64,000 bases of DNA. Source: a virus. Its lineage: Duplodnaviria > Caudoviricetes. Below are positions 632-19,075 of this stretch, one piece after another. Under the pieces are notes generated by a model, which had not been told where the DNA came from, ran no database searches, and was given only the letters and a program-made list of their open reading frames with translations. Numbering within the stretch: position 1 is the stretch's first letter; every line of letters starts with the position of its first letter. The stretch spans positions 288,001-352,000 of IMG/VR virus record IMGVR_UViG_3300021514_000002, one strand, 5' to 3'. Both the position numbers and the translations under genes were made by a program.

Positions 632-633
632 TA

Positions 634-2607: not shown

Positions 2608-2620
2608 TAATTTCTCTTTA

Positions 2621-2980
2621 TTATGTTATGGGTTTGCCGCCAACTGGTTTAGTAATTATATCTAATACCAATCTCGATTGTGTTGGTAAATAAATTTCCG
2701 CACCCGGAACTAATTCAGTTACAGGATCGACAATATTATTATATTGTAGAACTAACCACGCATATTGGGCTTTTCCATATACACGATACGATATTAAATC
2801 TGGGCGGTTGGCCTCGTATTCTTGGATGGTAATAATGAAATCGTTATCTTGACGTTCAAGAATTCTTTTTTCCCACCAACCAAGACGGTTATTATATCTA
2901 TCAGTCAGACCACCTTGTACCATTCGGGAACTGCGGTTATCTGTTGAATTTTTATTGATATCGGTTATTGTAAATGCCAT
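2621..2980 (-). CDS. gp53: Baseplate wedge protein gp53-like (LysM-type)
   Basis: RPDLISYRVYG...WLVLQYNNIVDP..L.PG..IYLP is the typical gp53 motif. Confidence 0.85.
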   Translation of the reverse strand: MAFTITDINKNSTDNRSSRMVQGGLTDRYNNRLGWWEKRILERQDNDFIITIQEYEANRPDLISYRVYGKAQYAWLVLQYNNIVDPVTELVPGAEIYLPTQSRLVLDIITKPVGGKPIT

Positions 2981-2982
2981 AA

Positions 2983-3706
2983 TTAAAATCCTTGTAATAT
3001 TCCTTGTTTAAACGCATTTAAGTTAAATCCTTCATAACTATTCGGCGAATGTGTTTCTATTAATGTTAAGTCTATATTCATGATTATTGGCATTGGTACA
3101 CCTGTTGACGTAGTAATATAGTCTACATCGTTTGGGTACGGTATCGTAAGTTGTTGTATAACGACAGGGATTCGGTTTATATGTTGCGAGACAGTCCATA
3201 CGTTAGAAACGCCTAAGCGTGTTTCTTTAGTGGCACTAGTAACTTCTTTTGAATATGCGCTTAGATATAATATCGGTGGTGGTGCGCCTAATAGTTCCGC
3301 ACCAAGCGACAAATTTTCGCCTGTGTTGGGATCTTTTTGTACGGGATTCTTAATACCCGCACCTTTCTGTGCATTATAACCAACCCGTGCGTTATATTCT
3401 TCTGTCTCAAGGGTAGTACTGTTTAATCCAAAACGTGGCATACACCATCCACGGAGCATCCATAATTTTTTTAAATTTACATCAGCTTCGGTAATAGTTC
3501 TTGATATAAGACGAATATCAGATATTTGAAAATTTCTAGACGATGTATTTTTATACACCTGTATTTGTCCAGGAGCATGTAACGGGTCTAATGAACCATA
3601 ATTAATATTTCTATTTTCCGATACGGTTGGGGATGCGTCAAACGTAACACGCCCTCCGCCCTTCGATGCAGATGTTAATTTAACTTTATACGGATTTTCT
3701 ATTGCC
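2983..3706 (-). CDS. Tail-tube initiator/baseplate tube-cap protein (gp48/gp54- or P2 GpU-like)
   Basis: Motifs F.ASP.VSE.R..NY, QVY..T.SR.F, GAPPPILYL, VVIQQLTI.YP..VD, plus baseplate synteny. Start moved to ATG 3706 (AAGGA upstream) because 3747-3775 is the divergent gp55 promoter. Confidence 0.55.
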
Positions 3707-3746
3707 ATGTGTATATCCTTGTCTGTGTTATTGATATTTATCATGG

Positions 3747-3775
3747 TTGACATAGTTTAAAAAGTGATATATACT
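3747..3775 (+). promoter_or_regulatory. Host sigma70-type promoter for gp55-47-46 operon
   Basis: TTGACA-17 bp-TATACT. Confidence 0.8.
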
Positions 3776-3795
3776 GTCAATTATTGGAGAATAAA

Positions 3796-4314
3796 ATGGC
3801 AATAAAAAAAGAAGAAAAGCCGCCAGTTAAGAAAAAAGTCAATTATATAAAGAATAAAGACCTCCTTGCAGAAGTAATAGTTTGCAAGGAGGAGGGTAAG
3901 ATGTCCGATAAATTAGCGAACATGCTTATTCTTCTAACTGCAAAATATGGACGTTCATCCCAGTTTGGTGGATACACATTTAATGATGATATGCAGGCAT
4001 ATGCCTTAATGATGTTGTGTAAAACTTGGATTGGATTCAAACCCGAAAGAAGCAGCAACGCATTTGCATATTATACACAAAGTATTAAAAATTCATTTAA
4101 ACAATTCTTAAACCGTGAAAAAGTACAACGAGTTGTGCGTGATGAATTATTAGTAGATAAGGGATTAAATCCGTCATTTACATATACAAACGAACATACA
4201 ACTAGCGATTCACATTATGTTCATGATGAAGAAGACCATGGTCAATCTGTGGAAGATCTGAAGAAAATAAATGAAGATGCTAATTCAGAAGAATTAATAT
4301 CTTACAAAAAATAA
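3796..4314 (+). CDS. gp55: Late-transcription sigma factor gp55
   Basis: NYIKNKDLL..., DDMQAYALM, F.PE.SSNAFAYYTQ....F....N.EK motifs; upstream of gp47/46 as in T4-like phages; GGAG before ATG 3796. Confidence 0.88.
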   Translation: MAIKKEEKPPVKKKVNYIKNKDLLAEVIVCKEEGKMSDKLANMLILLTAKYGRSSQFGGYTFNDDMQAYALMMLCKTWIGFKPERSSNAFAYYTQSIKNSFKQFLNREKVQRVVRDELLVDKGLNPSFTYTNEHTTSDSHYVHDEEDHGQSVEDLKKINEDANSEELISYKK

Positions 4315-4339
4315 TAATAATAATACAGGAAATAACAAG

Positions 4340-5389
4340 ATGGGTAATAGCACCCCCGCATTAAGTAAAGGTGCGTACTTTACTGACTTGCATGTTGGGG
4401 CTAAATCCAATTCACAACAACATAACGAAGATTGTGTCAATTATATTGATTGGTTCTGTGCTAATGTAAAAGCAGACCCTGAAATTGATTACATTTGTTT
4501 TGTAGGTGATTGGCACGAAGTCCGAAGCGCGATTAACGTGTTTACATTAAAATATTCATATGAAATTGCTACAAAAATCAATGACTTAGATCTGCCTGTA
4601 TATTTTATCATTGGCAACCATGATCTATATCATAGAAATAATAGGGACATTTATTCAGTTGTCCCTTTTAATGAGTTTAAAAATTTCAATATAATTGATA
4701 AACCTACGGTAATTGAGAATATTGGGGATGGTGTATTAATGTGCCCATTCCTGTTCCATGAAGAATATACCAAATTATCACAATATAATAAGATTCCTTT
4801 CTGGGTAGGACATTTTGAATTCAAGGGGTTTGTTGTTACTGGTTACAATATTACAATGAAAACCGGCCCAGACCATACGGACTTCGATGGACCAGAAAAT
4901 ATTATATCTGGTCATTTTCACAAAAGACAAACTAGCGGGAACGTAACCTATATTGGGAATACCTTTCCGACTAACTTCAGTGACGCTGGGGATGTTGAAC
5001 GCGGCATGATGATTTTTAACCATACTAATAAAGATATGAAGTTTCTTGATTGGGAAGATTGTCCCAAATATATAACAGGTACCTTATCCGATATAATAGC
5101 TGAAAAAATCAAATTGTATCCAAATTCACGAGTTCGTTGTGTAGCTGATATTCCCATAACATACGAGGAAAGTTTAGAATTGAAGAAAACTTTCATAGAG
5201 GGTTATGATTTGCGGGAATTTGCTATTGAGGAATCTAGTGAAATCCAAGAAGCATTGACCGAGACAGAAACAACCATCAACGAAAGAAATCTTGGTACTG
5301 TTGATGAAATGGTAGTAGAAATGTTAAACGACATCGAATCGGAACATATCGACAATGATTTACTTTCCGAAATCTACCAAAACTTATAA
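4340..5389 (+). CDS. gp47: Recombination nuclease gp47 (Mre11/SbcD-like)
   Basis: Metallophosphoesterase motifs TDLHVG, GDW, GNHD, GHFE, SGHFH; adjacent to gp46. Confidence 0.93.
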   Translation: MGNSTPALSKGAYFTDLHVGAKSNSQQHNEDCVNYIDWFCANVKADPEIDYICFVGDWHEVRSAINVFTLKYSYEIATKINDLDLPVYFIIGNHDLYHRNNRDIYSVVPFNEFKNFNIIDKPTVIENIGDGVLMCPFLFHEEYTKLSQYNKIPFWVGHFEFKGFVVTGYNITMKTGPDHTDFDGPENIISGHFHKRQTSGNVTYIGNTFPTNFSDAGDVERGMMIFNHTNKDMKFLDWEDCPKYITGTLSDIIAEKIKLYPNSRVRCVADIPITYEESLELKKTFIEGYDLREFAIEESSEIQEALTETETTINERNLGTVDEMVVEMLNDIESEHIDNDLLSEIYQNL

Positions 5390-5415
5390 CATAAAAAAAA
5401 TAAAAAAATAGGGTT

Positions 5416-7707
5416 ATGATTAAATTTAAACAACTTTCAATTAAAAATTTTCTGTCATATGGCGAAGTTCCAACAATAATAGACCTTGACGATACGGGCA
5501 CTACGTTGATTGTAGGGGAAGATCTGGATAATACTGCATCTGGAACTGGGGCTAATGGCGTCGGGAAAACTGTATGGATAAATGCGCTTATCTACGGATT
5601 GTATGGCAAACCAATATCTAATATATCATTAGATAATCTCGTCAATAATATTAATAAGAAGAACATGGAAGTTATTATTGAATTTGAAAAAGATGGAAAT
5701 GTGTGTACTGTTAAACGTGCGCGCAAGATAACGGGTTCAGGTAACTATGCTAAAGTCTTTATCCGTCCATCTGGTACAGATTTAGATGAAAATAAGCACG
5801 ACAAGACACCAGATAGTATAAGCAATATAAATGATTTTATTGCCGAGCTACTTGGGATTCCCTATGAACTATTTGTTCGCATTGTTGCTTTTGCGGCAAC
5901 CCATACACCGTTCCTCGATTTACCTGTTAGACATGCGTCACAAGCAAATCAATCTGATATTATGGAAGAACTATTTAGACTAACACAATTGTCTGTTAAA
6001 GCAGAATCCCTTAAAGTTGAAATTAGGGATACTAAACAATCGTTAGAAATTAAAACTTTACATAATGAACATCTCGAAAAAGAACATGAGCGCCATAATA
6101 AACAATTACTATCTGCAAGAAATCGCGTAGATGATTGGGAAGATGACCGCGATGTTGAAGTGATTGCTCTAAAAAAAGTATTAGAAGATTATGAAGCTGT
6201 TCCTATTGAGGAACAAGAAAAACTATATGAGCGCGTTGCAGAATTAAAGATTACGCTTGCAGAAGAAAAAGAAAAACAACAGACCCTTGAAACGATTATT
6301 ACTGAAATTAGTGCAGAATTCACTGTATCAAAATCAAAGTTAGTGGTTATTACAGAAAGTAAAGAAAGAATTATAAAGTGGAAGGAAGAAAATATAAAGA
6401 AGATTGCTGATTATAAAGCAGCAGCTGAGAAACTTCCTACTGCATATGTACTTAGCGAACAACAAAAATTACATCAGAAACTAGATACTTTAACAGAAAA
6501 TTTAAAAACTCTTACGGCTAAAGAAAAAGAAATAGAAGGCGACATTACACTTACCACTAATGAGTTAAATGAAGCCGAAGATGAATTAGTACATCTAGAA
6601 GAAGCAAAATGTCCATATTGTTTACAACAACTTGAAGATGCTGCAGCGAAAATTAATAAATGTAAAGATGATATAAAAATTAAAGAACAAGAGTTGTTTA
6701 ATTTTTCAGTGCTTTTAGATGTTGTTCAAAAAAACATAGTAGTTACATCTAAGGATGTTAAAACAGTTTCCGATGATATTGATTATTCTATAAACGAAAT
6801 AAACAATTATGAATATACGCGCAATGAATACGTTGTAAAATTACAAGAGTTGTTTAATGAACAGTGTCCACATGGTAATGCTAAAACTGTAGGTGATATG
6901 ATTTCAGTTATTTCCGAAATGACCGAAGAAAATATGCACTTAAAAGAAACCCTTGCAAAAGAAGCCGACGGGTTAGTTGCGATTGACGATGTAATTGAAT
7001 TAATCAATAATGAATTAATAGAATGTGAAAGCAACATTACAATTTCATCCTTGAATGAATTATACGAAATAAAGAACAAAATTAAACAACAAAAAGATAA
7101 GATTAAAGAATTAAAATCTGCTATTAATCCATATCTTGCACCATTAAATGAGTTACTAGATATTAAACTGGAACCTATTGATATGGATGCAATTAATAAA
7201 CTAACTAACTTGATAACACATCAGAATTATTTAGTTAAATTATTAACCAAGAAAGATAGTTTCATTCGTAAAACATTGTTGACTAAAAACCTTGTATTTT
7301 TAAATCAACGATTAAAAGAATATCTATTAGCTTTGGGATTGCCACACAAGGTAGAATTTACCCATGAAATGACTGCAAACATATCACAATTTGGTAGAGA
7401 ATTGGATTTTGGGAACTTGTCTAGTGGACAAAAAGCGCGCGTAAATCTCGCGTTGTCTTTCTCGTTTAGGGACGTATTACAAAAATCACACGATAGTATT
7501 AATGTTTGTATGCTTGATGAAGTTCTTGACGTTGGCCTTGATTCGGTTGGCGTACAAAACGCAGCACGAATGCTGAAGCGCAAGGCACGTGATGAAGATT
7601 TGGCACTGTTCATTATTTCACACAGGGACGAAGTTAGTAATATATTCGACCGAAGAATGACAGTCCAAATGGAAAAAGGTTTCAGTTCTGTGAAGGTAGA
7701 AGAATAA
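5416..7707 (+). CDS. gp46: Recombination ATPase gp46 (Rad50/SbcC-like)
   Basis: Walker A NGVGKT, coiled coil with CPYC zinc hook, signature LSSGQ, Walker B MLDEVLD, H-loop ISH. Confidence 0.95.
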   Translation: MIKFKQLSIKNFLSYGEVPTIIDLDDTGTTLIVGEDLDNTASGTGANGVGKTVWINALIYGLYGKPISNISLDNLVNNINKKNMEVIIEFEKDGNVCTVKRARKITGSGNYAKVFIRPSGTDLDENKHDKTPDSISNINDFIAELLGIPYELFVRIVAFAATHTPFLDLPVRHASQANQSDIMEELFRLTQLSVKAESLKVEIRDTKQSLEIKTLHNEHLEKEHERHNKQLLSARNRVDDWEDDRDVEVIALKKVLEDYEAVPIEEQEKLYERVAELKITLAEEKEKQQTLETIITEISAEFTVSKSKLVVITESKERIIKWKEENIKKIADYKAAAEKLPTAYVLSEQQKLHQKLDTLTENLKTLTAKEKEIEGDITLTTNELNEAEDELVHLEEAKCPYCLQQLEDAAAKINKCKDDIKIKEQELFNFSVLLDVVQKNIVVTSKDVKTVSDDIDYSINEINNYEYTRNEYVVKLQELFNEQCPHGNAKTVGDMISVISEMTEENMHLKETLAKEADGLVAIDDVIELINNELIECESNITISSLNELYEIKNKIKQQKDKIKELKSAINPYLAPLNELLDIKLEPIDMDAINKLTNLITHQNYLVKLLTKKDSFIRKTLLTKNLVFLNQRLKEYLLALGLPHKVEFTHEMTANISQFGRELDFGNLSSGQKARVNLALSFSFRDVLQKSHDSINVCMLDEVLDVGLDSVGVQNAARMLKRKARDEDLALFIISHRDEVSNIFDRRMTVQMEKGFSSVKVEE

Positions 7708-7886
7708 TGGGAAACAACAACGAATCATATCGCATTGTGCAGGATTTTCAACTTATCAGTGTATCGCTTGTTGCTAATCCTGAAAAAGGGATGGAAATAC
7801 AAACTCTAATGGAACGCGACGTTAATATTCTCATAGATAAATACGATAGAACTATGAAATTATTGGAGATGTATATAAATGAATAA
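7707..7886 (+). CDS. 59 aa protein resembling a prohead-protease fragment, with YDRTMKLL motif (absent from ORF track)
   Basis: ATG overlaps the gp46 stop (TAATG) and the stop overlaps the next start. MGNNNESYRIVQDFQLISVSLVANPEKG...DKYDRTMKLLEMYINE. Confidence 0.7.
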   Translation: MGNNNESYRIVQDFQLISVSLVANPEKGMEIQTLMERDVNILIDKYDRTMKLLEMYINE

Positions 7887-8244
7887 CGTAGAAGCTGTTG
7901 ATTATATCAACCGTGCAAAACAAGCAATGACAAATGTAATGGAATTTTTTCTATTTGAACCGATAAATGATAATTTAATGGCACGAATGGAAACCGCCCT
8001 TGTTGGCGAATTAATTACCGAAATTGATATTGATTTTGGTGTTGATGTTAAATATGAAGACAATGATGTATGTGTGGTAGTTTCACTCGACGGAATTAAA
8101 GTTGATAAAGGAATTCTAGAAATTGAAGGACGTTATACAAACTGTCCAGCATTATTTGCGGAATTGGAAACGTTAGACGCTGCTATTGAGTTTACAGATA
8201 GTGAAAGTAATATCGCATTTGACAGGGCTATGGAAATAGTTTAA
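7879..8244 (+). CDS. Small protein resembling tail-sheath C-terminal domain, ends AFDRAMEIV
   Basis: YINR..FLFEP..LVGELI versus YIKR..FVFEP..FLGDLI in this phage's gp18; GGAG RBS. Confidence 0.7.
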   Translation: MNNVEAVDYINRAKQAMTNVMEFFLFEPINDNLMARMETALVGELITEIDIDFGVDVKYEDNDVCVVVSLDGIKVDKGILEIEGRYTNCPALFAELETLDAAIEFTDSESNIAFDRAMEIV

Positions 8245-8573
8245 TGAAATATTGGAGAGATTCAGAAGCCGAATATCTTGAATATGAAGAAGCTGGACGA
8301 ATACTACCGTATAAACATCCTGCTGCTATAGCAGCGTCTGAGGACATTCGTACAGAAGTAGAGATAATTCCTAATACTATGGAATTTCGTGACTACCTTG
8401 ATCCAACAACATTCGTTACTAGTTTACGGAAATGTGTTAAGGTAGAACGTAGGTTGTTTCGTTTTGGCAAAGACATGCTTGAACAAATTGCATGGATTCC
8501 ATTAGATATAATGGGTTACAAAGTACCACCTAATAAATTTGCGGCCTTTGAGCGCGCAATGGAGATTATATAA
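8244..8573 (+). CDS. Hypothetical protein, ends AFERAMEII
   Basis: 109 aa, TAATG-coupled to both neighbours; weak similarity to the gp23 C-terminus (DPTTF vs NPTTF). Confidence 0.7.
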   Translation: MKYWRDSEAEYLEYEEAGRILPYKHPAAIAASEDIRTEVEIIPNTMEFRDYLDPTTFVTSLRKCVKVERRLFRFGKDMLEQIAWIPLDIMGYKVPPNKFAAFERAMEII

Positions 8574-8869
8574 TGAACAATGAAATAGAAATTTCAATGT
8601 TAGATTTTACGAATATGTCGAGTGAAGATACGCATGTATTAATTAACGTGAATATTGGGGCAATGCCTCCTAAACGAGCGTACGATTATCTTGTCAATAT
8701 CAAAACAACACTTCCACTATGTAAGATGTTGAATGAAAGAGGTATCACCTATTCCCTGATTGGTTGTAGATCTGATGGGGCTGGTAATATTGTAACAAGT
8801 ATCGAATCTAATGATAATATTGTTGATACAGAAAATACAAAGTTTGATGACGCAATGAATATTGTTTAA
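8573..8869 (+). CDS. Small protein resembling a portal (gp20) fragment, ends KFDDAMNIV
   Basis: INVNIGAMPPKRAYDYLVNIK versus IDVGKMPPQRVKQYLEGIK, and RSDGAG versus RPDGRG, in this phage's portal. Confidence 0.75.
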   Translation: MNNEIEISMLDFTNMSSEDTHVLINVNIGAMPPKRAYDYLVNIKTTLPLCKMLNERGITYSLIGCRSDGAGNIVTSIESNDNIVDTENTKFDDAMNIV

Positions 8870-8969
8870 TTTTAACATATTTTAAGTTATTGATTTTGAT
8901 AATAAAAAATTAATTAAATATTCCTTATAGGTGGTATACTAAATATTACCAATTATAAGGAATATTTCA

Positions 8970-9470
8970 GTGTCATTAAAAATACTTGGTATAGATCAAA
9001 GTTACAATTCGAGTGGACTAGTAGTTTTAAGCGATGATAATATCATACATTCAGAATGCTTTAAATCTAATAAAGAATCAAATCGTTTTGGACAAGCGCA
9101 CGAGGTTGCAATGTATATTGCATCTATAATAGATACATTCAATCCAGATGTTATTGCCATTGAAGGCTTGGCGTTCGGCATGAAAGGTAACGTCACCCGC
9201 GACTTAGGTGGTCTACAGTTTGTGATTATTTCGCACTTACAAGAAGTAAAGAAGCGCGAAGTAGTAATCGTTGCGCCGTTGACCGTAAAGAAACATGCGA
9301 CGGGTAATGGTAGGGCTAAAAAAGAAGAAATGATAGAAAGTTTACCCAAATATGCATCAGATATTTTTCTGGCATTAGGGGTGAAAAAAACAACTGGACT
9401 TGCAGATTTGGCAGATGCGTATTGGATCGCTAAAGTTGCAGAACAACTACATAAAGAAGAAAATAATTAA
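8970..9470 (+). CDS. ruvC: RuvC-like Holliday junction resolvase
   Basis: ILGIDQS, IAIEG, VKK.ATGNGRA.KEEM, DLADA RNase H-fold motifs. Confidence 0.88.
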   Translation: MSLKILGIDQSYNSSGLVVLSDDNIIHSECFKSNKESNRFGQAHEVAMYIASIIDTFNPDVIAIEGLAFGMKGNVTRDLGGLQFVIISHLQEVKKREVVIVAPLTVKKHATGNGRAKKEEMIESLPKYASDIFLALGVKKTTGLADLADAYWIAKVAEQLHKEENN

Positions 9471-9471
9471 T

Positions 9472-9678
9472 ATGGCCACATACGTATATAAATGTACAAA
9501 TAAAGAATGTGAAATACATAACATTGAATGGGAAGTAAAACAAAGTATGAAAGATGATGCTTTAACTACATGCCCAGAATGTGGGAAAGAGAGTTTGATT
9601 AAAGTAATATCCAGTGGTGGCGGATTCCGCATTGGTGGTCTAGGCGTACAAAAACCAACGGCGCACTGGGGCGATTGA
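9472..9678 (+). CDS. FmdB-family zinc-ribbon protein
   Basis: MATYVYKC..C...E..QSMKD..LT.CPECG...L.KVIS. Confidence 0.8.
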   Translation: MATYVYKCTNKECEIHNIEWEVKQSMKDDALTTCPECGKESLIKVISSGGGFRIGGLGVQKPTAHWGD

Positions 9679-9896
9679 TGCGCCATTGGAGCGAAGATAT
9701 TGTAACCATAACTTCCTCCAGTAATATAATATCCTTTTTTAATAAACATAAACACCAATTAGATCTCGAGGATGTAAAATTAATCGTTGACAAGTGCGAA
9801 GAATGTAGATTATACTTGAATGAACATAGTTGTTCGTATATAGAACAACACGAAGTTAATCCAAATATTCGTAAATATTTAGAAAAAATAAAGTAG
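9675..9896 (+). CDS. Hypothetical protein
   Basis: 73 aa ORF overlapping the previous stop (ATGA); contains CEEC. Confidence 0.5.
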   Translation: MMRHWSEDIVTITSSSNIISFFNKHKHQLDLEDVKLIVDKCEECRLYLNEHSCSYIEQHEVNPNIRKYLEKIK

Positions 9897-10182
9897 AAGT
9901 GACATACAAGTCCCATATTAGGACAATCTCATTGCCTGTCACCAATGAGTCGGTGTACGTTGCCCAATTTATCGAAAGACGTTGAGGCTAGTCCATCGTA
10001 AGATGTTAAAAACATTAAAAGGTAGAAGTTAAATACGCTACAGTATTCCAGACATCCCCCGTTATGGCTGTAGGCAGCTAGGTCCGCTTTACCCTTCAGC
10101 GACCGACCTTGGTTATTTTTTGACCTAAATGGGAAGGGACTGTTCTCTCAACTGTGTTGAGACTGTGTTTATATAAACAATA

Positions 10183-10237
10183 AATTATATATTAATAACA
10201 AGGGGGGGTTTATCCCCGAAGTTATTAATATATAATT
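10183..10237. repeat. Perfect 17 bp inverted repeat (long hairpin/cruciform)
   Basis: AATTATATATTAATAAC (10183-10199) / GTTATTAATATATAATT (10221-10237) enclosing GGGG-TTTAT-CCCC. Confidence 0.9.
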
Positions 10238-10274
10238 TCCGTCAAGCGCAGCGATGGCGGCATTATTGTAACTA

Positions 10275-10303
10275 TTGCTTTTTTCATTTTTTTGTGGTAA
10301 ACT
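10275..10303 (+). promoter_or_regulatory. Probable sigma70-type promoter of helicase
   Basis: TTGCTT-17 bp-TAAACT. Confidence 0.5.
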
Positions 10304-10309
10304 TCGTAG

Positions 10310-11908
10310 ATGGATAATAAAAACAACATTTTAAATTACTGGCCAACGCCTGAATTCACACCCCGTACTAATCAAGTCGCTGCACTTGAATGGATTACAA
10401 AACAAGAAGCCAAATACATTATACTTGAATTGCCCGTTGGCTCAGGTAAAAGCATACTTGGTCTTAACTTATCAAAATACCTTTCAAATGGACAAGGTAG
10501 CTCTTTCATATTAACCCCACAGCGTATTTTACAAGATCAATACGAACAAGATTTTCTAAGTAAAGGTAAGAGTTTCTTGGCATCGTTACATGGCAAAGGT
10601 AACTATAAATGCAAAAGCAAAAATACCTCTTGTAATATTGGTTCGTTAGTTAAACCCCGTTGTAACAACTGTCCCTTTGCAGATGCAAAAAAAGAAGCGA
10701 TTGATTCACATAACACCGTACTTAATTACAAATTGGCATTAACTTCTTTTTCATATACAGAAACTTTCAAAAAACGGAATCTAATGATTATGGATGAAGC
10801 CCATACATTAGAACGTCACTTAGTCGACTTCGATTCAGTTGACATATCATATGTCAGATGTAAACGATACGATATAAATTTTCAAGTACATACGTCACTT
10901 GAATCTGCGATGGCGTGGGTTAAAGACGCATATTTACCAAGAATTGAATCTATTTTTAATGACATGGAAGAAGAAAACGAATACCTATATGAAAAGGCGG
11001 GTACTGATATTACGCGCAAAGAACTCAATAAATTGAAAGAACTAGACGAGCTAGGTGATCACGTAAGTGAAGTACTATTGATGTCAGCCCGTACTACTGA
11101 ATACCTAAATGAAAACTTTGTGTTGGTTTGGGATAAAACAATGTTCAAATTTAAACGCCTCAAAGGATCTTATTCATTCAGAAAAATATTAGAACCTATG
11201 GCTAATAAGTTCTTGTTTATGTCTTCAACTATTTTGAATAAGAATACATTTTGTCATGACCTTGGTATTAATCCTAAAGATACAGCTTTCTTATCATTAC
11301 CTTCCGATTTTCCTGTCGAAAACAGACCGATTTATTATATGCCTGTCATGAAAATGAATGCATCGTGGAATAAACCAGAAAATGTCAATAATCGTAAACT
11401 GATGCTTTCACGTATTAAAGATTTATTAGAAATTCATAAAGACGAATCAGGTATTATACATACTGCTAATTATCAAATTGCTATTTGGTTAGTGAAGGAA
11501 CTTACTGGAAAAATCACCCATGATATCCATCACCATAATCCAGATGAAGATATTAATCGCAATAGTGCCATTGGTAATTTTATTGAATCTGATAGACCTT
11601 CAATTTTAATTAGCCCTTCTTCTACAGAAGGACTAGATCTCAAAGATTCTCTTGCAAGATTTGCCATTACGGTAAAAGTACCATTTGGGTACCTTGGTGA
11701 TCAATGGATTAAGCGTCGTATGGAAATGTCAAATGAATGGTATCGCCGCCGAGCCATTACGGATATTATTCAGGGGGGTGGTCGTATTGTTCGTAGCGCA
11801 GAAGATGAAGGTACGGTATACATATTAGATGGTAGTTTTGCATATTTGTACTCCCAATCAATGGCAATGGTACCACAGTGGTGGAAAGACTCATATAACG
11901 TATTGTAA
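10310..11908 (+). CDS. SF2 DinG/XPD-like helicase
   Basis: Q motif RTNQ, PVGSGKS, MDEAH, EGLD, QGGGRIVRS; Cys cluster C..C....C..CP. Confidence 0.88.
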   Translation: MDNKNNILNYWPTPEFTPRTNQVAALEWITKQEAKYIILELPVGSGKSILGLNLSKYLSNGQGSSFILTPQRILQDQYEQDFLSKGKSFLASLHGKGNYKCKSKNTSCNIGSLVKPRCNNCPFADAKKEAIDSHNTVLNYKLALTSFSYTETFKKRNLMIMDEAHTLERHLVDFDSVDISYVRCKRYDINFQVHTSLESAMAWVKDAYLPRIESIFNDMEEENEYLYEKAGTDITRKELNKLKELDELGDHVSEVLLMSARTTEYLNENFVLVWDKTMFKFKRLKGSYSFRKILEPMANKFLFMSSTILNKNTFCHDLGINPKDTAFLSLPSDFPVENRPIYYMPVMKMNASWNKPENVNNRKLMLSRIKDLLEIHKDESGIIHTANYQIAIWLVKELTGKITHDIHHHNPDEDINRNSAIGNFIESDRPSILISPSSTEGLDLKDSLARFAITVKVPFGYLGDQWIKRRMEMSNEWYRRRAITDIIQGGGRIVRSAEDEGTVYILDGSFAYLYSQSMAMVPQWWKDSYNVL

Positions 11909-11947
11909 GTTATTGATTATATTAGTTAAATATTATAACCTAATTGC

Positions 11948-11976
11948 TTGACTTTTGTAACCTAATTTGTTATAGT
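11948..11976 (+). promoter_or_regulatory. sigma70-type promoter
   Basis: TTGACT-17 bp-TATAGT. Confidence 0.75.
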
Positions 11977-12007
11977 AAGTTTAATATATTAATTAAGGAT
12001 ATACACG

Positions 12008-12427
12008 ATGTTAACTAAAATCATGAACCTCATATCATATTGTATAGTTATTGGTTTTGGGTTTATATTACTTAGTCCCTCTATACCATTTTGGGAAACA
12101 TTCATCGGCGCATTAAGATTTGTAGTTTGGGGTTTGCCTTTTGAAATTATAGCAAATCCGTTCGCGATATGGATGGACACGCTTGGAAGTGCACAAAGCA
12201 CCCTTGGTTTGTTTATTTCTTTTGCATTTCTTGCTACATATTATCTTGGCTGTTTTGTTGCTTTCACATCGTGGGTACATGTCCCAGACGCACCACCATC
12301 AGACCCATTTTGGGATAATGAGTTTTATTGGTTATTGGGACTTAAGAGCACGAAAGAATTACAAGATGTAGAAGTTCAAGCGAATGCAATAGTTCACGCA
12401 ATGAACAAACAGAAACGAACACAATAA
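12008..12427 (+). CDS. Hypothetical membrane protein
   Basis: Two to three hydrophobic segments; has its own promoter and terminator. Confidence 0.7.
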   Translation: MLTKIMNLISYCIVIGFGFILLSPSIPFWETFIGALRFVVWGLPFEIIANPFAIWMDTLGSAQSTLGLFISFAFLATYYLGCFVAFTSWVHVPDAPPSDPFWDNEFYWLLGLKSTKELQDVEVQANAIVHAMNKQKRTQ

Positions 12428-12453
12428 AAAAGGGGGCATTGCCCCCTTTTTTT
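12426..12453. terminator. Bidirectional intrinsic terminator
   Basis: AAAAAAGGGGGC-ATT-GCCCCCTTTTTT between convergent genes. Confidence 0.9.
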
Positions 12454-12472
12454 CACCTTATTATCATTAAAA

Positions 12473-12682
12473 TTAGTAGGTAGGATTTGGTGACTTACTT
12501 TCCAAGTCTAGTCTATTTTTTAAGAACTCTGAGACTAATTGACGTTCAGCATATGACATGGTTAAAAGGATACTTTCATACGACATCCCGCCTCGCATAA
12601 AATAAGTCATATCAATGATATTATTAATTAACATTTTTGCTTCATCTTGTAATGTTAAAAACATATGTTGAATATCCTTCAC
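12473..12682 (-). CDS. gp51: Baseplate hub assembly protein gp51-like
   Basis: YFMRGGMSYE...MS..ER......L; follows gp26. Confidence 0.7.
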   Translation of the reverse strand: MKDIQHMFLTLQDEAKMLINNIIDMTYFMRGGMSYESILLTMSYAERQLVSEFLKNRLDLESKSPNPTY

Positions 12683-12699
12683 TGAACCTGATTTTAATG

Positions 12700-13560
12700 T
12701 TACATAAAATAAGATAAGGGATTTATCGGCGCGGTAACTTTCATCTTCTTACCACAATCTTTACACTTTGTTTCGTATACGAAATCAGGACCCCAGTCAC
12801 TTGTTTTTTCTATAGCTTCTGACAATTTAGTCATCCAACCAGCAGAAATAGTAGTCAACCATTCTTTGATCATGTCCTTATTATCAATATTATCTACTGA
12901 ACTAATTACACTCATTATTGTATCAACAATACTCGCGGTTTCTTCTTCTGGGGTAAGATTAGCGCTTGGATCATAGCTTTGCATCATTTTAATAACATCT
13001 TTAAATCTTGGTGGATGCATTTTTATTACTTGATCGTTGGGGAGTTTGGTAGTATACATTTTTCCAATTGTTGTAGGATCTATACGTTTAGTGTTGTTGA
13101 TAAAATAATCAATACTAATACTATATTCTTGTGATTTTGCATCCTTACAATCATGTGTATATATTAATTGAAAAGTATCCCCGTATGTTATTTTTCTCAA
13201 GCACACCATAAGAAAATCTATATCTTTACTAAACAACTCCTTCGGTTTCATAATTTGTGGAATACATCGCTTGAATATTTGCTCAACCGCTTCACCTGAG
13301 AATAATAGATCTGGGGTTTTAAGTAATACTTCATCAAATGCGGTCATCGGATGTATGTGTACTTCACCGTCAACCACTGAAGCATCTAACTCATTATCTG
13401 TATAAAAAATCCCACCAGATGGCAATTTGAACGTAGAACCTGGCATGTGCACGCGCGCCAGAAGGGGATTAACTGTTTTTTGTGCCGTTTCAGGCAATAT
13501 TGTTTTCTTTATTTCATCTACCCTATTGTTTTCAGGTGATGAATTATCCATATTATCCAT
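12700..13560 (-). CDS. gp26: Baseplate hub subunit gp26-like
   Basis: LPSGG..Y, PMTAFDE.LL, DIDFL...LR..TYG, terminal CKDCG. Confidence 0.85.
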   Translation of the reverse strand: MDNMDNSSPENNRVDEIKKTILPETAQKTVNPLLARVHMPGSTFKLPSGGIFYTDNELDASVVDGEVHIHPMTAFDEVLLKTPDLLFSGEAVEQIFKRCIPQIMKPKELFSKDIDFLMVCLRKITYGDTFQLIYTHDCKDAKSQEYSISIDYFINNTKRIDPTTIGKMYTTKLPNDQVIKMHPPRFKDVIKMMQSYDPSANLTPEEETASIVDTIMSVISSVDNIDNKDMIKEWLTTISAGWMTKLSEAIEKTSDWGPDFVYETKCKDCGKKMKVTAPINPLSYFM

Positions 13561-13682
13561 TCTTTTCTCCTATGGTCGTATGTTTTTATATTTAGTTTAT
13601 ATGCATTATATTTATTATGGGGTTTTTCCGTATGGTATATAGGATAAATATAGAATAATAAGTATCTATTTAGGTTAAAATA

Positions 13683-15764
13683 ATGGCATTTAGTTCTGAA
13701 CAAAATGAAATTCTACAAGCATTAGCGGCTATGATTAAGCAATCAGCAGGTGTACGTGAACCCATTGTGGGCGTTGAAGCGCGTGCGGAAAAAGAAAACG
13801 CAGAAGCGAATAAGAAATTACTCGAAGCAAATAAACAATTAATCGCTGCCCTTAAGAAATATAAAAATGTAACAGAGTTATCCAATGATCAATTTGATGA
13901 AATTGCAAAGGCCGCAGATAAGGCAGGTGTTAAATTAGATGACTTAATTGACGCCACCACATTGACAGTTAAAAGTTTTGACGATTTGCAAGAAGAAACT
14001 GACGAACTTGCCGCTGCAATGGACAAGACAACAGATAAAACTAAGAAACACACAAAAACAGTACAGACCGCAATCAACATATGGGATCAACATTCTCAGA
14101 AAATAAAAGATTCATTTGGATTATTTGTTGAAGAAAATCGCATAATGAAAGAACGTGCTGCAAACGACGCAACATATGCTGATGCTGTGATAGGGTTGGG
14201 AATATCAATGAAAGAATGGTCAACTATTCTTGCTGATAATCGTGGCGTGCAACAAGCAATGGCATCTAGTGGTAGGGATTTTACAGAAGAACTATCAGCA
14301 GGTTCTGAACGTATGAGAAGTTTTAGTAAGGATAATGTTCAAGCCGCAAAAACTACGGCAGCACTTATGAAAGGTATTGCAGGATTCGGTGTATCGCAAA
14401 AAAATCTTGATGGCGCGCTTAATGAACAAATAAACATGTATGAAAAAAATTATAGAGTATTTGGAATAACAGCTGAAGCTTTTGCTGAATCCACCGCCGC
14501 TCTCGTTACAGATACTGATATTCGCAACAATCTTTCAATAATGGGCGAAAAGGAAAGAAAAGCATTTATTGTTGGTCTGCAAGCGCGCGAAGCCGAAAGA
14601 CTTGCAATGGGTTATACCGCAGAACAAGCACGTGAATTAACGAAAACTTTTGCGGCGTTGGCAGGCGAAACACCAAAAGAAAGAATGAAAAAGGCAGCTA
14701 AACAAAGAGCATTAGCAGGCGCATTGGGGATGGGCGAAGAAGGTGCTCGTTTGCAACAATTAATGGTTAATATTAATCAGTTACAAGGCAAAGAGCGTAC
14801 CGCAGCTTTAAAAGAAATTGAAGATATTCAACGTGGAATGGCGAATGCGTTACAAGTCAAAAAAGGCCAAGGTATTGCTAGTGAAATGTTCGCAACCGCA
14901 TTTGCAGATAAAGCAGGATTTCTCGAACTTGCCCGTACCCTTGAAACACGTTCAAAGGAAGGTCAAAAAATTGATAAAGCACAAATGGCAGCAACTGCGG
15001 CTGGTCGTGAAGTTCCATGGTTAATAGATAAAGGATTAACCGTTCTTAGTTGGATAGAAGGATATCAAGCAACATCGGTTGCCTTGCTTGGGACTATTGC
15101 CTTTGCACTTACAAAAGGCAAAATATTAAGTCTTATTTCCAATGTATTTAAAGGTGGCGGCGGTAAAGCAGCTGCTGCGGGAGCAGGCAAACTGGCATCA
15201 ATGGCAGGTGGCGCGAAAAGCGTTCTTGGTAGTGTTGTAGCAAAGGTTGCAGCACCTCTTGCAGGTGTTATCGCGGGCTATGAAAAATATGCAGAATTGA
15301 AAGACAAAAAAGAATTAACCGCAGGACAAAAAACTGCTCAAATTGGCACGACAGCAGTCGGTGGAACAGGCGGCGCATTAGCGGGTGCTGCGGCGGGTGC
15401 TGCTATTGGAACACTTGCGGGACCAATTGGCACAATTGTTGGTGGATTAATCGGCGGCGCTGTCGGGGCGTGGGGCGGCTCGGAAGCAGGTGCATCTATT
15501 GGGGAAGGTATTAGTGACTTAATGGCTAAACCTGAAACACAGCAAGCAGCAAAAGAAAAGATCGCCGCTGAACCTGCTGTTACAACAGAAATTTCTAAAA
15601 AAACCACAGACAATGATTCACTAGTTGCAACATTAAAAGAACTTATGAAATATATTAAAACTATCAACGAACAAAATAGCGAACAAGCCGCTGCTATGAG
15701 AGCATTGGCAGAAGTAATAAAAGACAATAAAAGGTTCGCAGTTAATAATAGATCAAGAGTTTAA
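13683..15764 (+). CDS. Tape-measure/baseplate hub gp29-like protein
   Basis: 693 aa, helical and Ala/Lys-rich with glycine-zipper GALAGAAAGAAIG..GGLIGG; divergent from gp26. Confidence 0.6.
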   Translation: MAFSSEQNEILQALAAMIKQSAGVREPIVGVEARAEKENAEANKKLLEANKQLIAALKKYKNVTELSNDQFDEIAKAADKAGVKLDDLIDATTLTVKSFDDLQEETDELAAAMDKTTDKTKKHTKTVQTAINIWDQHSQKIKDSFGLFVEENRIMKERAANDATYADAVIGLGISMKEWSTILADNRGVQQAMASSGRDFTEELSAGSERMRSFSKDNVQAAKTTAALMKGIAGFGVSQKNLDGALNEQINMYEKNYRVFGITAEAFAESTAALVTDTDIRNNLSIMGEKERKAFIVGLQAREAERLAMGYTAEQARELTKTFAALAGETPKERMKKAAKQRALAGALGMGEEGARLQQLMVNINQLQGKERTAALKEIEDIQRGMANALQVKKGQGIASEMFATAFADKAGFLELARTLETRSKEGQKIDKAQMAATAAGREVPWLIDKGLTVLSWIEGYQATSVALLGTIAFALTKGKILSLISNVFKGGGGKAAAAGAGKLASMAGGAKSVLGSVVAKVAAPLAGVIAGYEKYAELKDKKELTAGQKTAQIGTTAVGGTGGALAGAAAGAAIGTLAGPIGTIVGGLIGGAVGAWGGSEAGASIGEGISDLMAKPETQQAAKEKIAAEPAVTTEISKKTTDNDSLVATLKELMKYIKTINEQNSEQAAAMRALAEVIKDNKRFAVNNRSRV

Positions 15765-15843
15765 TTAAACGCAAGGTTTGCTAAAAAATAGTCCTCATAA
15801 ATATAATTATAATAGTAAACATACACTAAGAAGAATTAATTTT

Positions 15844-17472
15844 ATGACAGCAAAATGGACGGGATATTTTAAGGTTGTTTCACCGCAACCCTCTACAACC
15901 AAAATGACAGATAGCCAGGAAATGGCTGACTCTGGCGCGTACAACAACTATACATGGTATCAACGATTAGTACAAGGTTCCGCATCACGTATGACGCGGT
16001 ATCGTGAATATGATCTCATGGATAATGACATTGAAGTCGCGCGTGCACTTGATACTATCGCAGAAGAAATGACAGGGAATAATCCTAAAACAAAAGAACC
16101 TCTTATTCTTGATATTATGACAGAAGATGAAGACAATGTTGAAGGCATTGCGGTTCTTACGTTGAAGGCAGCATTACGACGTTGGGCACATTTGCACAAT
16201 TTTCCAAATCGTTTATATGCCATTGCACGCTTAACAATAAAATATGGCGATGTTTTTTTCCGCAAAGGAAAAAAACTAAATGATAAGTGGCAATTCATTC
16301 ATCCTAAAAATATAATTGCAGCCGTTGTTGATGAACATGATGCAACTAAAGTTTTGGCATGGCAGATGAAAAAAGATATAGAAAAACCAAGAACTGGTGG
16401 TTATGCTATGCCAATCGGCGCTAAAGAAGATTCTGCACATGAAAGTGAAATTGTTTCAACTAATGAACTTATTCGCTTTTCGTTAAACGATGATATGTCA
16501 GATACCCAACCATTTGGTGAATCTGTTCTACGTCCAGTTTATCGTTCACACAAACAAAAAGAATTATTGGAAGATGCTGTTATTATCTATCGTGTACAAC
16601 GTGCACCTGAGCGTCGTGTATTCTATATTGATGTTGGTAAGATGCCTCCACAGCGTGTTAAACAATACCTTGAAGGTATTAAGAATGAAATTAAACAAAA
16701 GAAAATCCCAACACAAAATGGTGGACAATCAGAAGTAGATTCCGTTTATAACCCACATTCAATGAGTGAAGATTTCTTTTTCGCGTCACGACCAGATGGT
16801 CGTGGTTCACGCGTTGAAACATTACCAGGTGGTCAAGGTCTTGGTGAATTATCCGATCTTGAATACTTCCAACGTAAAGTCTGGCGTGGTTTGAAAGTTC
16901 CAGTCTCTTATATGATAGAACAACAAGAAGGTGGCCAAGTCTGGAATGATGGTAAAGTCGGCATCGCATATATTCAGGAATTGCGTTTTTCATTATACGT
17001 AGAACGACTACAAGGTTATCTTGAAAGAACATTAGATGCTGAATTTAAAGAATTCTTACGCAAGACGAATATCCGCATTGATGAATCAATGTATCGTATT
17101 ATGCTTCCAGAACCTTCTAACTTTGGTAAGTACAAACAACTTGAATTAGATAGTCAGTTACTTAGTGCATATACAACTCCAGATGGAATTAGTTATATGT
17201 CTAAACGATTTGCAATGAAACGCTATTTACAAATGTCTGATGAAGAAATGATTACCAATGAACGGTTAAAGCGCGAAGAATTAGGTATTGATGCTGATAG
17301 TACAGATCCTGCCGACTTACAAGCAATCTATGGTGCACCAGAAGAAGGTGCCATGGGCGGCATGACAGGTGGCCTAGGTGGTGGATTTGGTGGTGCAGAA
17401 TTAGGCATGAGCGGTGAACCCGCAACCCCAGAAAGTGGCACTCCACCCGCTGCTGCAACGCCAACAACATAA
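15844..17472 (+). CDS. gp20: Portal vertex protein gp20
   Basis: LEDAVIIYRVQRAPERRVFYIDVGKMPP and EDFFF..R.DGRGSRVETLPGG; probable start MTAKW at 15844. Confidence 0.97.
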   Translation: MTAKWTGYFKVVSPQPSTTKMTDSQEMADSGAYNNYTWYQRLVQGSASRMTRYREYDLMDNDIEVARALDTIAEEMTGNNPKTKEPLILDIMTEDEDNVEGIAVLTLKAALRRWAHLHNFPNRLYAIARLTIKYGDVFFRKGKKLNDKWQFIHPKNIIAAVVDEHDATKVLAWQMKKDIEKPRTGGYAMPIGAKEDSAHESEIVSTNELIRFSLNDDMSDTQPFGESVLRPVYRSHKQKELLEDAVIIYRVQRAPERRVFYIDVGKMPPQRVKQYLEGIKNEIKQKKIPTQNGGQSEVDSVYNPHSMSEDFFFASRPDGRGSRVETLPGGQGLGELSDLEYFQRKVWRGLKVPVSYMIEQQEGGQVWNDGKVGIAYIQELRFSLYVERLQGYLERTLDAEFKEFLRKTNIRIDESMYRIMLPEPSNFGKYKQLELDSQLLSAYTTPDGISYMSKRFAMKRYLQMSDEEMITNERLKREELGIDADSTDPADLQAIYGAPEEGAMGGMTGGLGGGFGGAELGMSGEPATPESGTPPAAATPTT

Positions 17473-17497
17473 AAGTTTACATAAATATAATGAACCG

Positions 17498-17505
17498 TAT
17501 AAATA
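17498..17505 (+). promoter_or_regulatory. T4-type late promoter
   Basis: TATAAATA ahead of head-core genes. Confidence 0.75.
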
Positions 17506-17518
17506 AAAGGAGATAACA

Positions 17519-17683
17519 ATGGCTGATACTGAACAACTTAGTAAAATGCTTGATAATTTAATTAATAAAAAGGATGAACAGGCGCAAGTTCACTTCCATG
17601 ATTATTTGCAAGGAAAAATGCAGGAAGTAATTCATGGTGATGAAGAAGTAAGCGAAGAACCTGATAATTCTATTACCAAATAA
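17519..17683 (+). CDS. Small prohead core protein (gp67-like; absent from ORF track)
   Basis: AGGAG RBS; MADTEQLSKMLDNLINKKDEQAQVHFHDYLQGKMQEVIHGDEEVSEEPDNSITK; position just after portal. Confidence 0.75.
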   Translation: MADTEQLSKMLDNLINKKDEQAQVHFHDYLQGKMQEVIHGDEEVSEEPDNSITK

Positions 17684-17695
17684 GGGGAACACAAC

Positions 17696-18208
17696 ATGAG
17701 CAGCGGCACAAAAAAGGTATTATCTGCCACTAAAATAAAACAACAAGCTATCCAAAAGATGCTTGAATCTTTAATTACAGGTAATCCAGAAGAAGCAAGT
17801 GTGCAACTTCATGAATATCTTCAGTTAAAAACACGCGAATTAATCATTGGTGAATCGTCTGAAAAGGATGAAGATGAAGATGATAAAGAATGTGATGACG
17901 ACAAAGTCGATGACAAAGATGACAAAGATGACGACAAAGATGGTAAGGAAGATGTAAAAGAAACAGTTACACATCATCCTGACGGCGCAATGTCGCGTAC
18001 GATAAGTGGTCTTTTGAATTTTGAAAATGGTGGTAAGAAAACACTTAAGAAGCATGATAATTCTACCAAAGAACTTGATGGTACTAAAGTTGTAAAAACT
18101 AAATTCAAGTCTGGTGGTAAGCAACCTGCTAAAACACTTGAAAAAACCCCAAAACCTGAAAAGTTTAATGATGGTCGCTCTAAAGATTTAGGTACTACTA
18201 AATCTTAA
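17696..18208 (+). CDS. Prohead core protein (gp67/gp68-like)
   Basis: Acidic D/E/K-rich protein between portal and protease; internal IIGE and VKE potential cleavage sites. Confidence 0.65.
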   Translation: MSSGTKKVLSATKIKQQAIQKMLESLITGNPEEASVQLHEYLQLKTRELIIGESSEKDEDEDDKECDDDKVDDKDDKDDDKDGKEDVKETVTHHPDGAMSRTISGLLNFENGGKKTLKKHDNSTKELDGTKVVKTKFKSGGKQPAKTLEKTPKPEKFNDGRSKDLGTTKS

Positions 18209-18330
18209 TGTGGTGGTTTAAGGCACTATCTGTAATCAAAACAACATATACATGGATTGGTACATTACAGATGGTAGCCAAAATGGTTAAATGGTTAAAG
18301 AGATTTAAAAAAGAAGCAAAGGAAAGCTAA
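18208..18330 (+). CDS. 40 aa basic amphipathic peptide (absent from ORF track)
   Basis: TAATG-coupled to the upstream gene and ends 9 nt before gp21; MWWFKALSVIKTTYTWIGTLQMVAKMVKWLKRFKKEAKES. Confidence 0.55.
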   Translation: MWWFKALSVIKTTYTWIGTLQMVAKMVKWLKRFKKEAKES

Positions 18331-18339
18331 GGAAAGATT

Positions 18340-18978: not shown

Positions 18979-19038
18979 ACAAAAATAAAAGTTCAATTAT
19001 TTTAACTTTTTATTGCATCGTAAGTGCATGAAATTATT

Positions 19039-19075
19039 AAGGATTTTGTCTGTTAAAAGACAAGATCCTTTTTTT
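19039..19075 (+). terminator. Intrinsic terminator after gp21
   Basis: AAGGATTTTGTCT-GTTAAA-AGACAAGATCCTT followed by a T run. Confidence 0.6.

Follow-up and report, generated by a model that had tools for sequence, protein, structure and literature searches.

Locus and main features

The stretch of DNA analyzed here, called the window, is 64,000 nucleotides (nt) long and corresponds to positions 288001-352000 of the IMG/VR virus record IMGVR_UViG_3300021514_000002 (363,531 bp), which comes from a deep-sea phage. The whole record has a GC content of 36% and contains T4-like genes. Directly upstream of a gene encoding a DinG/XPD (Rad3)-like helicase, the window carries a conserved, structured non-coding RNA (ncRNA) element, which is the subject of this report. 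Genes for an SbcC/Rad50-like protein, a RuvC-like resolvase, a Zn-ribbon protein, and a protein of 72 amino acids (aa) are located before it (Table 1), and a baseplate hub gene is found in the neighborhood on the opposite strand. Positions are those of the window throughout, and the plus strand is the strand of the helicase gene.

A description made earlier from the letters of the window (the original prediction) had noted about 410 bp free of longer open reading frames (ORFs) between RuvC and helicase genes, GC-balanced at the 5' side and AT-rich at the 3' side, and had proposed an ncRNA, a replication origin, or both. Between 9897 and 10309 (413 bp) indeed no ORF reaches 60 aa; the longest are of 28-34 aa and none is conserved. 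The GC content is 0.42-0.51 in 9900-10149 and then about 0.31-0.33, while that of the genome is 0.36, in agreement with the described shift. As for the flanks, the helicase gene adjoins the interval, but RuvC is separated from it by the Zn-ribbon ORF and the 72-aa ORF.

Table 1. Coordinates of the RNA element, its helices, the flanking signals, and the neighboring genes in the window
Feature	Position	Strand	Description
Conserved core of the structured ncRNA	9893-10145	+	5' domain 9893-10059, 3' domain 10060-10145; covariance model R1, 280.9 bits
5' pseudoknot	9899-9942	+	GTGAC 9899-9903 with loop GTCAC 9938-9942 of hairpin P3
Hairpin P2	9910-9913 with 9921-9924	+	Between the pseudoknot strands; one compensatory pair in L043
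Hairpin P3	9928-9934 with 9943-9949	+	6 of 7 pairs changed on both sides
Central long arm	9951-9955 with 9994-9998	+	CGGTG with CATCG; contains inner helices
Central hairpin	10002-10006 with 10012-10016	+	GATGT with ACATT
Central hairpin	10032-10036 with 10043-10047	+	AATAC with GTATT; extended by 10025-10029 with 10052-10056
Hairpin A, 3' domain (10066-10138)	10066-10070 with 10075-10079	+	GGCTG with CAGCT; 100% paired in 16 sequences
H-type pseudoknot, stem S1	10080-10084 with 10105-10109	+	AGGTC with GACCT; 86% paired, 4 of 5 pairs changed on both sides
H-type pseudoknot, stem S2	10092-10097 with 10133-10138	+	CCCTTC with GAAGGG; 92% paired, 5 of 5 pairs changed on both sides
Inserted hairpin, 3' domain	10111-10114 with 10122-10125	+	GGTT with GACC; 100% paired, 3 of 3 pairs changed on both sides
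Candidate promoter of the RNA	9787-9816	+	Sigma-70-type, TTGACA-18-TATACT; 11 of 12 consensus positions; predicted start about 9823
Small hairpin and palindrome	10146-10162 and 10166-10179	+	Hairpin TCTCAAC/GTTGAGA; absent at the aligned positions of relatives
Long hairpin	10182-10238	+	18-bp AU-only lower stem, AAG/GAA internal loop, GGGG(G)/CCCC cap; 25-nt arms, 88% complementary
Second, short GC hairpin	10239-10260	+	CCGTCA...TGGCGG; directly before the helicase promoter; counterparts with GCGAAGC-type cap in L003 and L017
Predicted helicase promoter	10275-10303	+	TTGCTT-17-TAAACT, TG before the -10 box; -10 box ends 6 nt before the ATG at 10310
DinG/XPD (Rad3)-like SF2 helicase	10310-11908	+	Pfam Helicase_C_2, ResIII, DEAD, DEAD_2; phrog_2488 at 8.5e-112
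72-aa ORF	9678-9896		Stop codon TAG at 9894-9896
Zn-ribbon protein ORF	9400-9678
RuvC-like resolvase	8970-9470		166 aa; ordinary Holliday-junction resolvase, phrog_159
SbcC/Rad50-like gene	5416-7707

Conservation of the element in related phages

Relatives were fetched with the helicase as an anchor from IMG/VR, from the JGI and NCBI metagenomes, and from GTDB genomes; their loci are denoted by L numbers. In close relatives, whose helicases are 66-78% identical to that of the window, the DNA upstream of the helicase gene aligns in three parts: a strongly conserved block, a poorly conserved one, and, adjacent to the ATG, a -35/-10 pair that is conserved. The first of these corresponds to the core of Table 1. 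It begins abruptly at ...AGAAGTGA irrespective of the upstream sequence, and in all cases the conserved sequence starts with ...AGAAGUGA. In L003 and L004 the homologous upstream ORF is in another frame and runs 55 nt (17 codons) into the block with an unconserved tail. An insertion separates the upstream ORF from the block in L006, and in L017 the upstream ORF is gone and the block is kept. Nucleotide identity to the relatives is 66-77% in the core, 66-76% in the helicase gene, and 48-64% in the spacer that follows the core; at this level the core and the helicase gene are equally well conserved.

A covariance model, R1, was made from a four-sequence RNAalifold alignment. It finds a single copy in the whole 363-kb genome. 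Full-length matches of 100-293 bits are found in L003, L004, L006, L017, L043, L039, and L035; in L037 (116 bits) and L036/L019 (27 bits) the end of the contig cuts the match short. Weaker matches that cover the 3' domain only are found in L060, L046, L050, L045, L053, and L049; this domain is the part that the most distant relatives also have. A second covariance model, R2, was built from six distant loci, leaving out the window and its close relatives. R2 aligns with 9992-10132 of the window at 26.4 bits (E = 8e-7 when all loci are searched, 1e-9 for 9700-10400), placing the same hairpin, pseudoknot stem, and inserted hairpin. As R2 was built without the window and yet matches it, this is independent evidence of homology. 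R2 also matches L047, L056, L022/L110, and L060.

At all loci matched by R1 or R2, the element is on the helicase strand and directly upstream of the helicase gene. The family consists of at least nine close and about ten more distant uncultured phage contigs, which come from many different metagenome samples. The window has the features that define it: the 3' domain hairpin GG..GUAG..CUAGG, the H-type pseudoknot with an inserted hairpin, and the position upstream of the helicase. At the distant loci, where the helicase is about 50-59% identical, an element of 245-310 nt exists at the same place; its 3' half is homologous and its 5' half has diverged. The 5' half of this distant form has a sharply conserved hairpin of its own, CUGGCUAUUAAAUUAGCAG, about 350-420 nt upstream of the helicase. 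It is found in L040, L045, L046, L049, L050, L055, L056, L057, and L110, and it is the only part detected in L055 and L057.

Some loci carry other non-coding sequences at this position. In L018, whose helicase is 69% identical, it is occupied by about 550 nt of GC-rich sequence without ORFs (2396-2994), beginning with ACAGAAGG after a TATAAT box. None of R1, R2, and Rfam matches this stretch, and it may be a very diverged form of the RNA or a different RNA in the same slot. Among the 49 helicase loci surveyed in L032-L110 (helicase 42-59% identical), about 30 show 230-800 nt devoid of ORFs before the helicase gene. Non-coding elements thus seem to be common at this site outside the detected family as well, and the locus may hold further diverged or different RNAs in distant relatives. 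Additional loci collected from IMG/VR with loose DNA patterns (L011-L016 and L025-L030) are chance matches in coding sequence and were discarded.

Secondary structure and covariation

RNAalifold predicts 64 pairs from the four sequences, 19 of which show compensatory changes. The complete pseudoknotted structure has about 14 helices and 69 pairs and was counted on an alignment of 16 sequences; about 35 further helicase relatives (65-82% identical) stand outside this alignment. In the 16 sequences, 92% of the alignment cells are paired, compared with 34-42% when the partners are slid along the alignment. Forty of the 69 pairs are changed on both sides, compared with 6-14 when slid, and none of 500 shuffles matches the observed covariation score. 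The check for covariation across relatives that had been called for thus comes out clearly in favor of a conserved structure.

The 5' domain begins with a pseudoknot between the first strand of the core and the loop of hairpin P3. In a scan of column pairs, this stem is 100% paired in eight sequences, and one of its pairs is U-A in five and C-G in three of them. RNAalifold had closed the 5' domain with a different helix (GTGAC with GTTAT), which was dropped in favor of the pairing between GTGAC and the P3 loop, which shows covariation and is the better fit. Hairpins P2 (GTCC/GGAC) and P3 (CTCATTG/CAATGAG) were both described in the original prediction, and both show compensatory changes in relatives. 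In the central region (9951-10056), helices 4, 8, 9, and 10 are 92-96% paired, with 2-4 pairs each changed on both sides. The inner helices of the long arm (5-7) are weaker, being 76-86% paired.

The 3' domain contains hairpin A followed by an H-type pseudoknot. Its stem S1 is found by the column-pair scan to pair across the CCCTTC/GAAGGG helix. A hairpin GGTCCGCT/AGCGACC had been described at 10081-10104. These sequences are present, but covariation favors a shifted register, in which the S1 strands of Table 1 pair together with CGC and GCG and form one stem of the pseudoknot rather than a hairpin.

The structure can also be assigned to a strand. G·U cells outnumber A·C cells on the plus strand 60 to 11, although the structure was itself derived by RNA folding of the plus strand; this asymmetry is as expected for a plus-strand RNA and not for a double-stranded DNA element. 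The folding z-score of the whole interval is -3.85 on the plus strand and -2.35 on the minus strand. The interval as a whole therefore beats its shuffles, but the core alone is unexceptional (z = -1.47). Since folding energy by itself is only suggestive, the case for an ncRNA rests on covariation. The core contains no ORF longer than 34 aa, and the 1- and 2-nt insertions and deletions (indels) between relatives inside the block rule out a conserved reading frame. The suggestion of an ncRNA in the GC-balanced 5' part is thus borne out by about 20 related loci, covariation in at least 14 helices and two pseudoknots, the plus-strand G·U bias, and the absence of a conserved frame.

Promoters and downstream hairpins

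The candidate promoter of the RNA is located inside the 3' end of the upstream 72-aa ORF. It is one of only two such sites in positions 1-20000 of the window. The other, TTGACA-17-TATACT at 3747-3775, lies at the GC-skew minimum and strand switch, 8 nt before the first plus-strand ORF. Both TTGACA and TATACT of the 9787-9816 promoter are kept in L006 and L017, and only the -10 box is kept in L003 and L004. In L017, in L043, and in the distant members, a -10 box is positioned a few bases ahead of the conserved 5' end.

The AT-rich part that follows the core is of a different nature. The small hairpin TCTCAAC/GTTGAGA and the palindrome TGTTTATATAAACA, both pointed out in the original prediction, are present but limited to this phage. 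The largest inverted repeat of the interval, the long hairpin at 10182-10238, had not been described. All 14 relatives folded have a hairpin of this shape, in which an AU-rich stem of 13-18 bp carries a GA-type internal loop and is capped by 3-4 bp of GC; its sequence differs, and a second, shorter GC hairpin usually comes next. The downstream hairpins fold better as the plus strand at 10 of the 14 loci (summed energies, -549 vs. -448 kcal/mol). The cap motif flanked by inverted repeats has no repeats across the 363-kb genome.

The long hairpin does not look like a canonical intrinsic terminator: its GC pairs form the tip of the stem, and it is not followed by a U-tract. For comparison, this phage has a canonical terminator, AAAAAAGGGGGCAATGCCCCCTTTTTT, at 12426-12452. 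A weak terminator-like site at 10146-10162 is not conserved. Because the hairpins lack a U-tract, the long hairpin is read as probably the 3' terminal stem of the RNA, a processing site, or a non-canonical terminator.

The helicase promoter is kept in L003, L004, L006, and L017, and the arrangement in distant relatives is TTGnnn-17-TAnnnT, then 6-9 nt, then ATG. A -10 box at this distance from the start codon is seen in L003, L004, L017, L045, L046, L049, L050, and L053, down to about 50-52% protein identity. No Shine-Dalgarno sequence precedes the helicase ATG, while 25 of 48 other plus-strand genes have a clear one. With the -10 box 6 nt from the ATG and no Shine-Dalgarno sequence, the helicase mRNA is most likely leaderless. 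A riboswitch or 5' leader of the helicase gene was considered and rejected, as the conserved -35/-10 boxes are located between the RNA and the ATG; the RNA would not be the leader of a leaderless mRNA.

Searches for known RNA families

None of the 4227 models of Rfam 15 matches the core, even when E values as high as 10 are allowed, and the same is true of the homologous place in 12 relatives. The Rfam scan that the original prediction had called for thus gives the core no name. Sub-threshold hits on the AT hairpin (10147-10239), namely Srn266 (28.9 bits vs. a threshold of 63), a psbA-3'UTR-type model, and microRNA models, are matches of shape only and were rejected. ARAGORN finds no transfer RNA (tRNA) or transfer-messenger RNA gene in the whole window.

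The Rfam models of group I introns, RNase P RNA, and hepatitis delta virus (HDV)-like ribozymes are among those without a match to the core. Their element order or their core motifs do not appear to fit the present RNA, although this falls short of a formal exclusion. By the same kind of comparison, 6S RNA, the put and EAR antitermination RNAs, and omega or guide RNAs do not appear to fit. The RuvC and Zn-ribbon genes upstream raised the possibility of a TnpB/IscB-like guide RNA, which was rejected: the RuvC is an ordinary resolvase, and in L022 the RNA stays with the helicase and not with RuvC. More than 10,000 candidate viral structured RNAs drawn from IMG/VR are described in PMC10690425. 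The text of that study, as distinct from its sequence files, does not mention helicase-associated motifs, so a prior listing without a name is possible. The core is an RNA family not yet catalogued and absent from Rfam.

Neighboring genes

A small helical protein of 72-102 aa is encoded directly upstream of the RNA in close and distant relatives (window 9678-9896, L003 2342-2650, L006 2211-2510, and the upstream ORF of L050), and it is lost in L017. The 72-aa protein of the window has no match in Pfam or PHROG, and its structural neighbors in the ESM Atlas are generic helical proteins only. Some helicase relatives (L017 1807-4467, L060, and proteins P0010, P0011, P0071, and P0120) have an insert of about 350 aa after about residue 44, which matches the Pfam intein and homing-endonuclease domains PF05203, PF05204, and PF14528; the helicase of the window does not have it. 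A blastn search of 50,697 GenBank phage records found nothing similar. In bacterial and archaeal genomes (GTDB), the helicase scan found only two short mis-binned contigs of metagenome-assembled genomes and gave no clue to the host.

Proposed explanation

What precedes the helicase is a conserved, strand-specific, non-coding, pseudoknotted structure, which is single-copy and always located before the same helicase gene. It is set apart from that gene by hairpins conserved in shape and by a conserved promoter. From these sequence data we lean towards the explanation that 9893-10145 of the plus strand is a gene for a stable, highly structured ncRNA of an uncatalogued family, which acts in trans, probably as part of an RNA-protein complex of the replication/recombination module. 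The RNA would be transcribed rightward from the sigma-70-type promoter at 9787-9816. Some relatives would use a promoter nearer to the RNA; others may excise the RNA from a transcript of the upstream operon. It probably ends at the GC-capped hairpin 10182-10238 or is trimmed back to it. The predicted fold consists of two domains, locked by the 5' pseudoknot and the 3' H-type pseudoknot, both indicated by covariation. The helicase gene would be transcribed independently, its own promoter giving a leaderless mRNA, and the RNA would be neither a helicase leader nor a DNA origin structure. Working in trans, it may form the RNA part of a complex tied to the module of SbcCD, RuvC, the small conserved ORF, and the helicase.

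Several points weigh against this explanation. Only eight full-length close members exist and they are related, so that the covariation counts include shared ancestry, and the 16-sequence alignment was fitted to the nested structure of R1. The nested folding energy of the core, as given above, is unexceptional. The lack of a U-tract after the long hairpin makes the 3' end uncertain, and read-through into the helicase region is possible. The strict linkage with the helicase could mean a role in cis rather than in trans, and the upstream 72-aa protein, with no informative match, gives no protein partner. The promoter, the ends of the RNA, and its action in trans are all inferred.

A more specific form of the explanation, in itself unlikely, is that the RNA is a working part of the replication/recombination machinery, either as a folded primer or origin-specifying RNA or as a cofactor or regulator of the DinG/XPD-like helicase. 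If true, the DNA metabolism of T4-like jumbo phages would include an RNA-dependent step not described before. In a variant of it, the abrupt, context-independent, pseudoknot-locked 5' boundary at AGAAGUGA would mark a site of self-processing, that is, a ribozyme.

Alternative explanations

A role in cis is somewhat improbable. The folded RNA would control transcription by processive antitermination, attenuation, or insulation, acting on its own polymerase or on the hairpins that follow. It would then set the share of early transcription, coming from the upstream operon or the 9787 promoter, that continues past the hairpins into the helicase gene and those downstream of it. The invariant order of promoter or operon, RNA, one or two strong hairpins, and helicase would suit such a role, as would hairpins that are not canonical terminators, and cassettes of a stem-loop and an early promoter (PeSLs) are known in T4-like genomes (PMC4122927). 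However, a conserved promoter belongs to the helicase gene itself, which lacks a Shine-Dalgarno sequence, and in a read-through RNA its AUG would be internal and without a ribosome site. No alternative terminator/antiterminator pairings are seen in the core. Known antitermination RNAs are small, HK022 put being about 70 nt and EAR about 120 nt, and the core, with its 250 nt and two pseudoknots, greatly exceeds them in complexity.

An RNA-primed replication origin is decidedly doubtful. A transcript from 9787-9816 would hybridize in the AT-rich part 10163-10238 and prime the leading strand in the manner of T4 oriF/oriG or ColE1 RNA II; the fold would guide formation of the hybrid, and the neighboring helicase would load or act there. 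The element is found within a replication/recombination gene block, with a strong early-type promoter upstream and a hairpin-prone AT-rich segment downstream. Within a genome of 363 kb, only about 6-7.5 kb separate the element from the GC-skew minimum and the main strand switch, and T4 origins are located near such strand switches and use promoter-derived RNA (PMC3016281). The cumulative skew of the whole genome, which the original prediction had named as a check, has its minimum at about 2394 of the window, at the divergent strand switch 3753/3784 and 7.5 kb from the element. GC skew in phages follows the direction of transcription. The minimum coincides with the strand switch and with the equally strong promoter at 3747-3775, not with the element, and by position the region of that promoter would be a better candidate for a T4-like origin than the interval 9897-10309. 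Furthermore, about 350 nt of conserved folded RNA lie between the promoter and the AT-rich part, whereas T4 oriF/oriG are only about 100 bp. The AT-rich sequences themselves are not conserved, and only the shape of the plus-strand RNA hairpin is kept. For an origin of the iteron type, 9500-10600 contains no tandem repeats, only short direct repeats in two copies. The earlier idea of a replication origin or unwinding element in the AT-rich part is not supported, given unconserved palindromes, no iterons, and a skew minimum elsewhere. The origin reading of the interval is weak, as the sequence analysis gives nothing specific for it.

A function in the DNA itself is very improbable. Cruciform or hairpin extrusion would serve at an origin, in packaging, or as a protein-binding site, and the transcript would be incidental. 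The inverted-repeat stems are long, perfect, and AT-rich, and relatives have GCGAAGC-type caps, which are very stable DNA mini-hairpins. Yet the 60:11 ratio of G·U to A·C favors folding as plus-strand RNA, folding is stronger on that strand, two pseudoknots are kept by covariation, and the GC-balanced core is not a palindrome overall. A coding role of the core, for a small protein or for a gene that is recoded or frameshifted, with conservation at the protein level, is hardly credible: there is a 28-codon GTG frame at 9899-9985 and the upstream ORF enters the core by 17 codons in L003 and L004, but the frames are broken by 1- and 2-nt indels with differing stops, the L003/L004 extension is not conserved as protein, and substitutions track base-pairing rather than codon positions.

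Comparison with known phage elements

Taken as a trans-acting RNA gene, the core most resembles the orphan ncRNAs of phages, such as the species 1 and 2 RNAs of T4 (rnaC and rnaD), GOLLD, and the candidates of PMC10690425. Like them, it is phage-encoded and stably folded, has no assigned function, is recognized by covariation, and is driven by a promoter, which is a predicted one here. It differs from rnaC and rnaD in its size (250-310 nt), its double pseudoknot, and its fixed position before a helicase gene rather than in a tRNA cluster. Compared with Rfam families and tRNA, it has no match in sequence or structure and is not tRNA-shaped.

The downstream part of the interval resembles the PeSL cassettes of T4-like phages. 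These consist of a stem-loop, sigma-70-like -35/N17/-10 boxes, a Shine-Dalgarno sequence, and a start codon, and they are repeated around the genome (PMC2839356, PMC4122927). Here the hairpins 10182-10238 and 10239-10260 are followed by TTGCTT-17-TAAACT at 10275-10303, so that a stem-loop and a promoter are both present. In contrast to PeSLs, there is no Shine-Dalgarno sequence, the -10 box is 6 nt from the ATG, the hairpin is much longer, and the cap motif is not repeated. PeSLs leave the 250-nt core unexplained.

ColE1 RNA II is a folded RNA of several hundred nucleotides. The present locus is similar to it and to T4 oriF/oriG in having a promoter-derived RNA (here predicted) beside an AT-rich region, replication genes in the neighborhood, and a strand switch near. 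No antisense regulator or hybrid-forming tract is found here. T4 oriF/oriG are about 100 bp and consist of a middle promoter and an adjacent AT-rich unwinding element, and T4 origins are located near strand switches (PMC3016281). In the window, the AT-rich part 10163-10238 is not adjacent to the promoter but starts about 350 nt after it, with the GC-balanced core between. The minimal T4 origins have no conserved RNA fold, whereas here the fold is conserved and the AT-rich part is variable. The T4 gene 32 pseudoknot and the gene 43 operator are also comparable, as a pseudoknotted RNA is located upstream of a replication or repair gene. Those structures are in an mRNA leader over the ribosome-binding site, whereas here a promoter is located between the RNA and the ATG and there is no leader.

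Significance

Large phages are increasingly seen to be rich in elaborate RNAs of unassigned function. The RNA described here is a defined family, and its two covariance models can enter RNA catalogues. The conserved leaderless promoter of the helicase is useful for annotation, in a T4-like phage with mostly strong Shine-Dalgarno sequences elsewhere. The RNA is tied to one site, between a small conserved ORF and a leaderless helicase gene in a replication/recombination block, and it offers a definite case in which to examine whether structured RNAs serve in phage replication modules.

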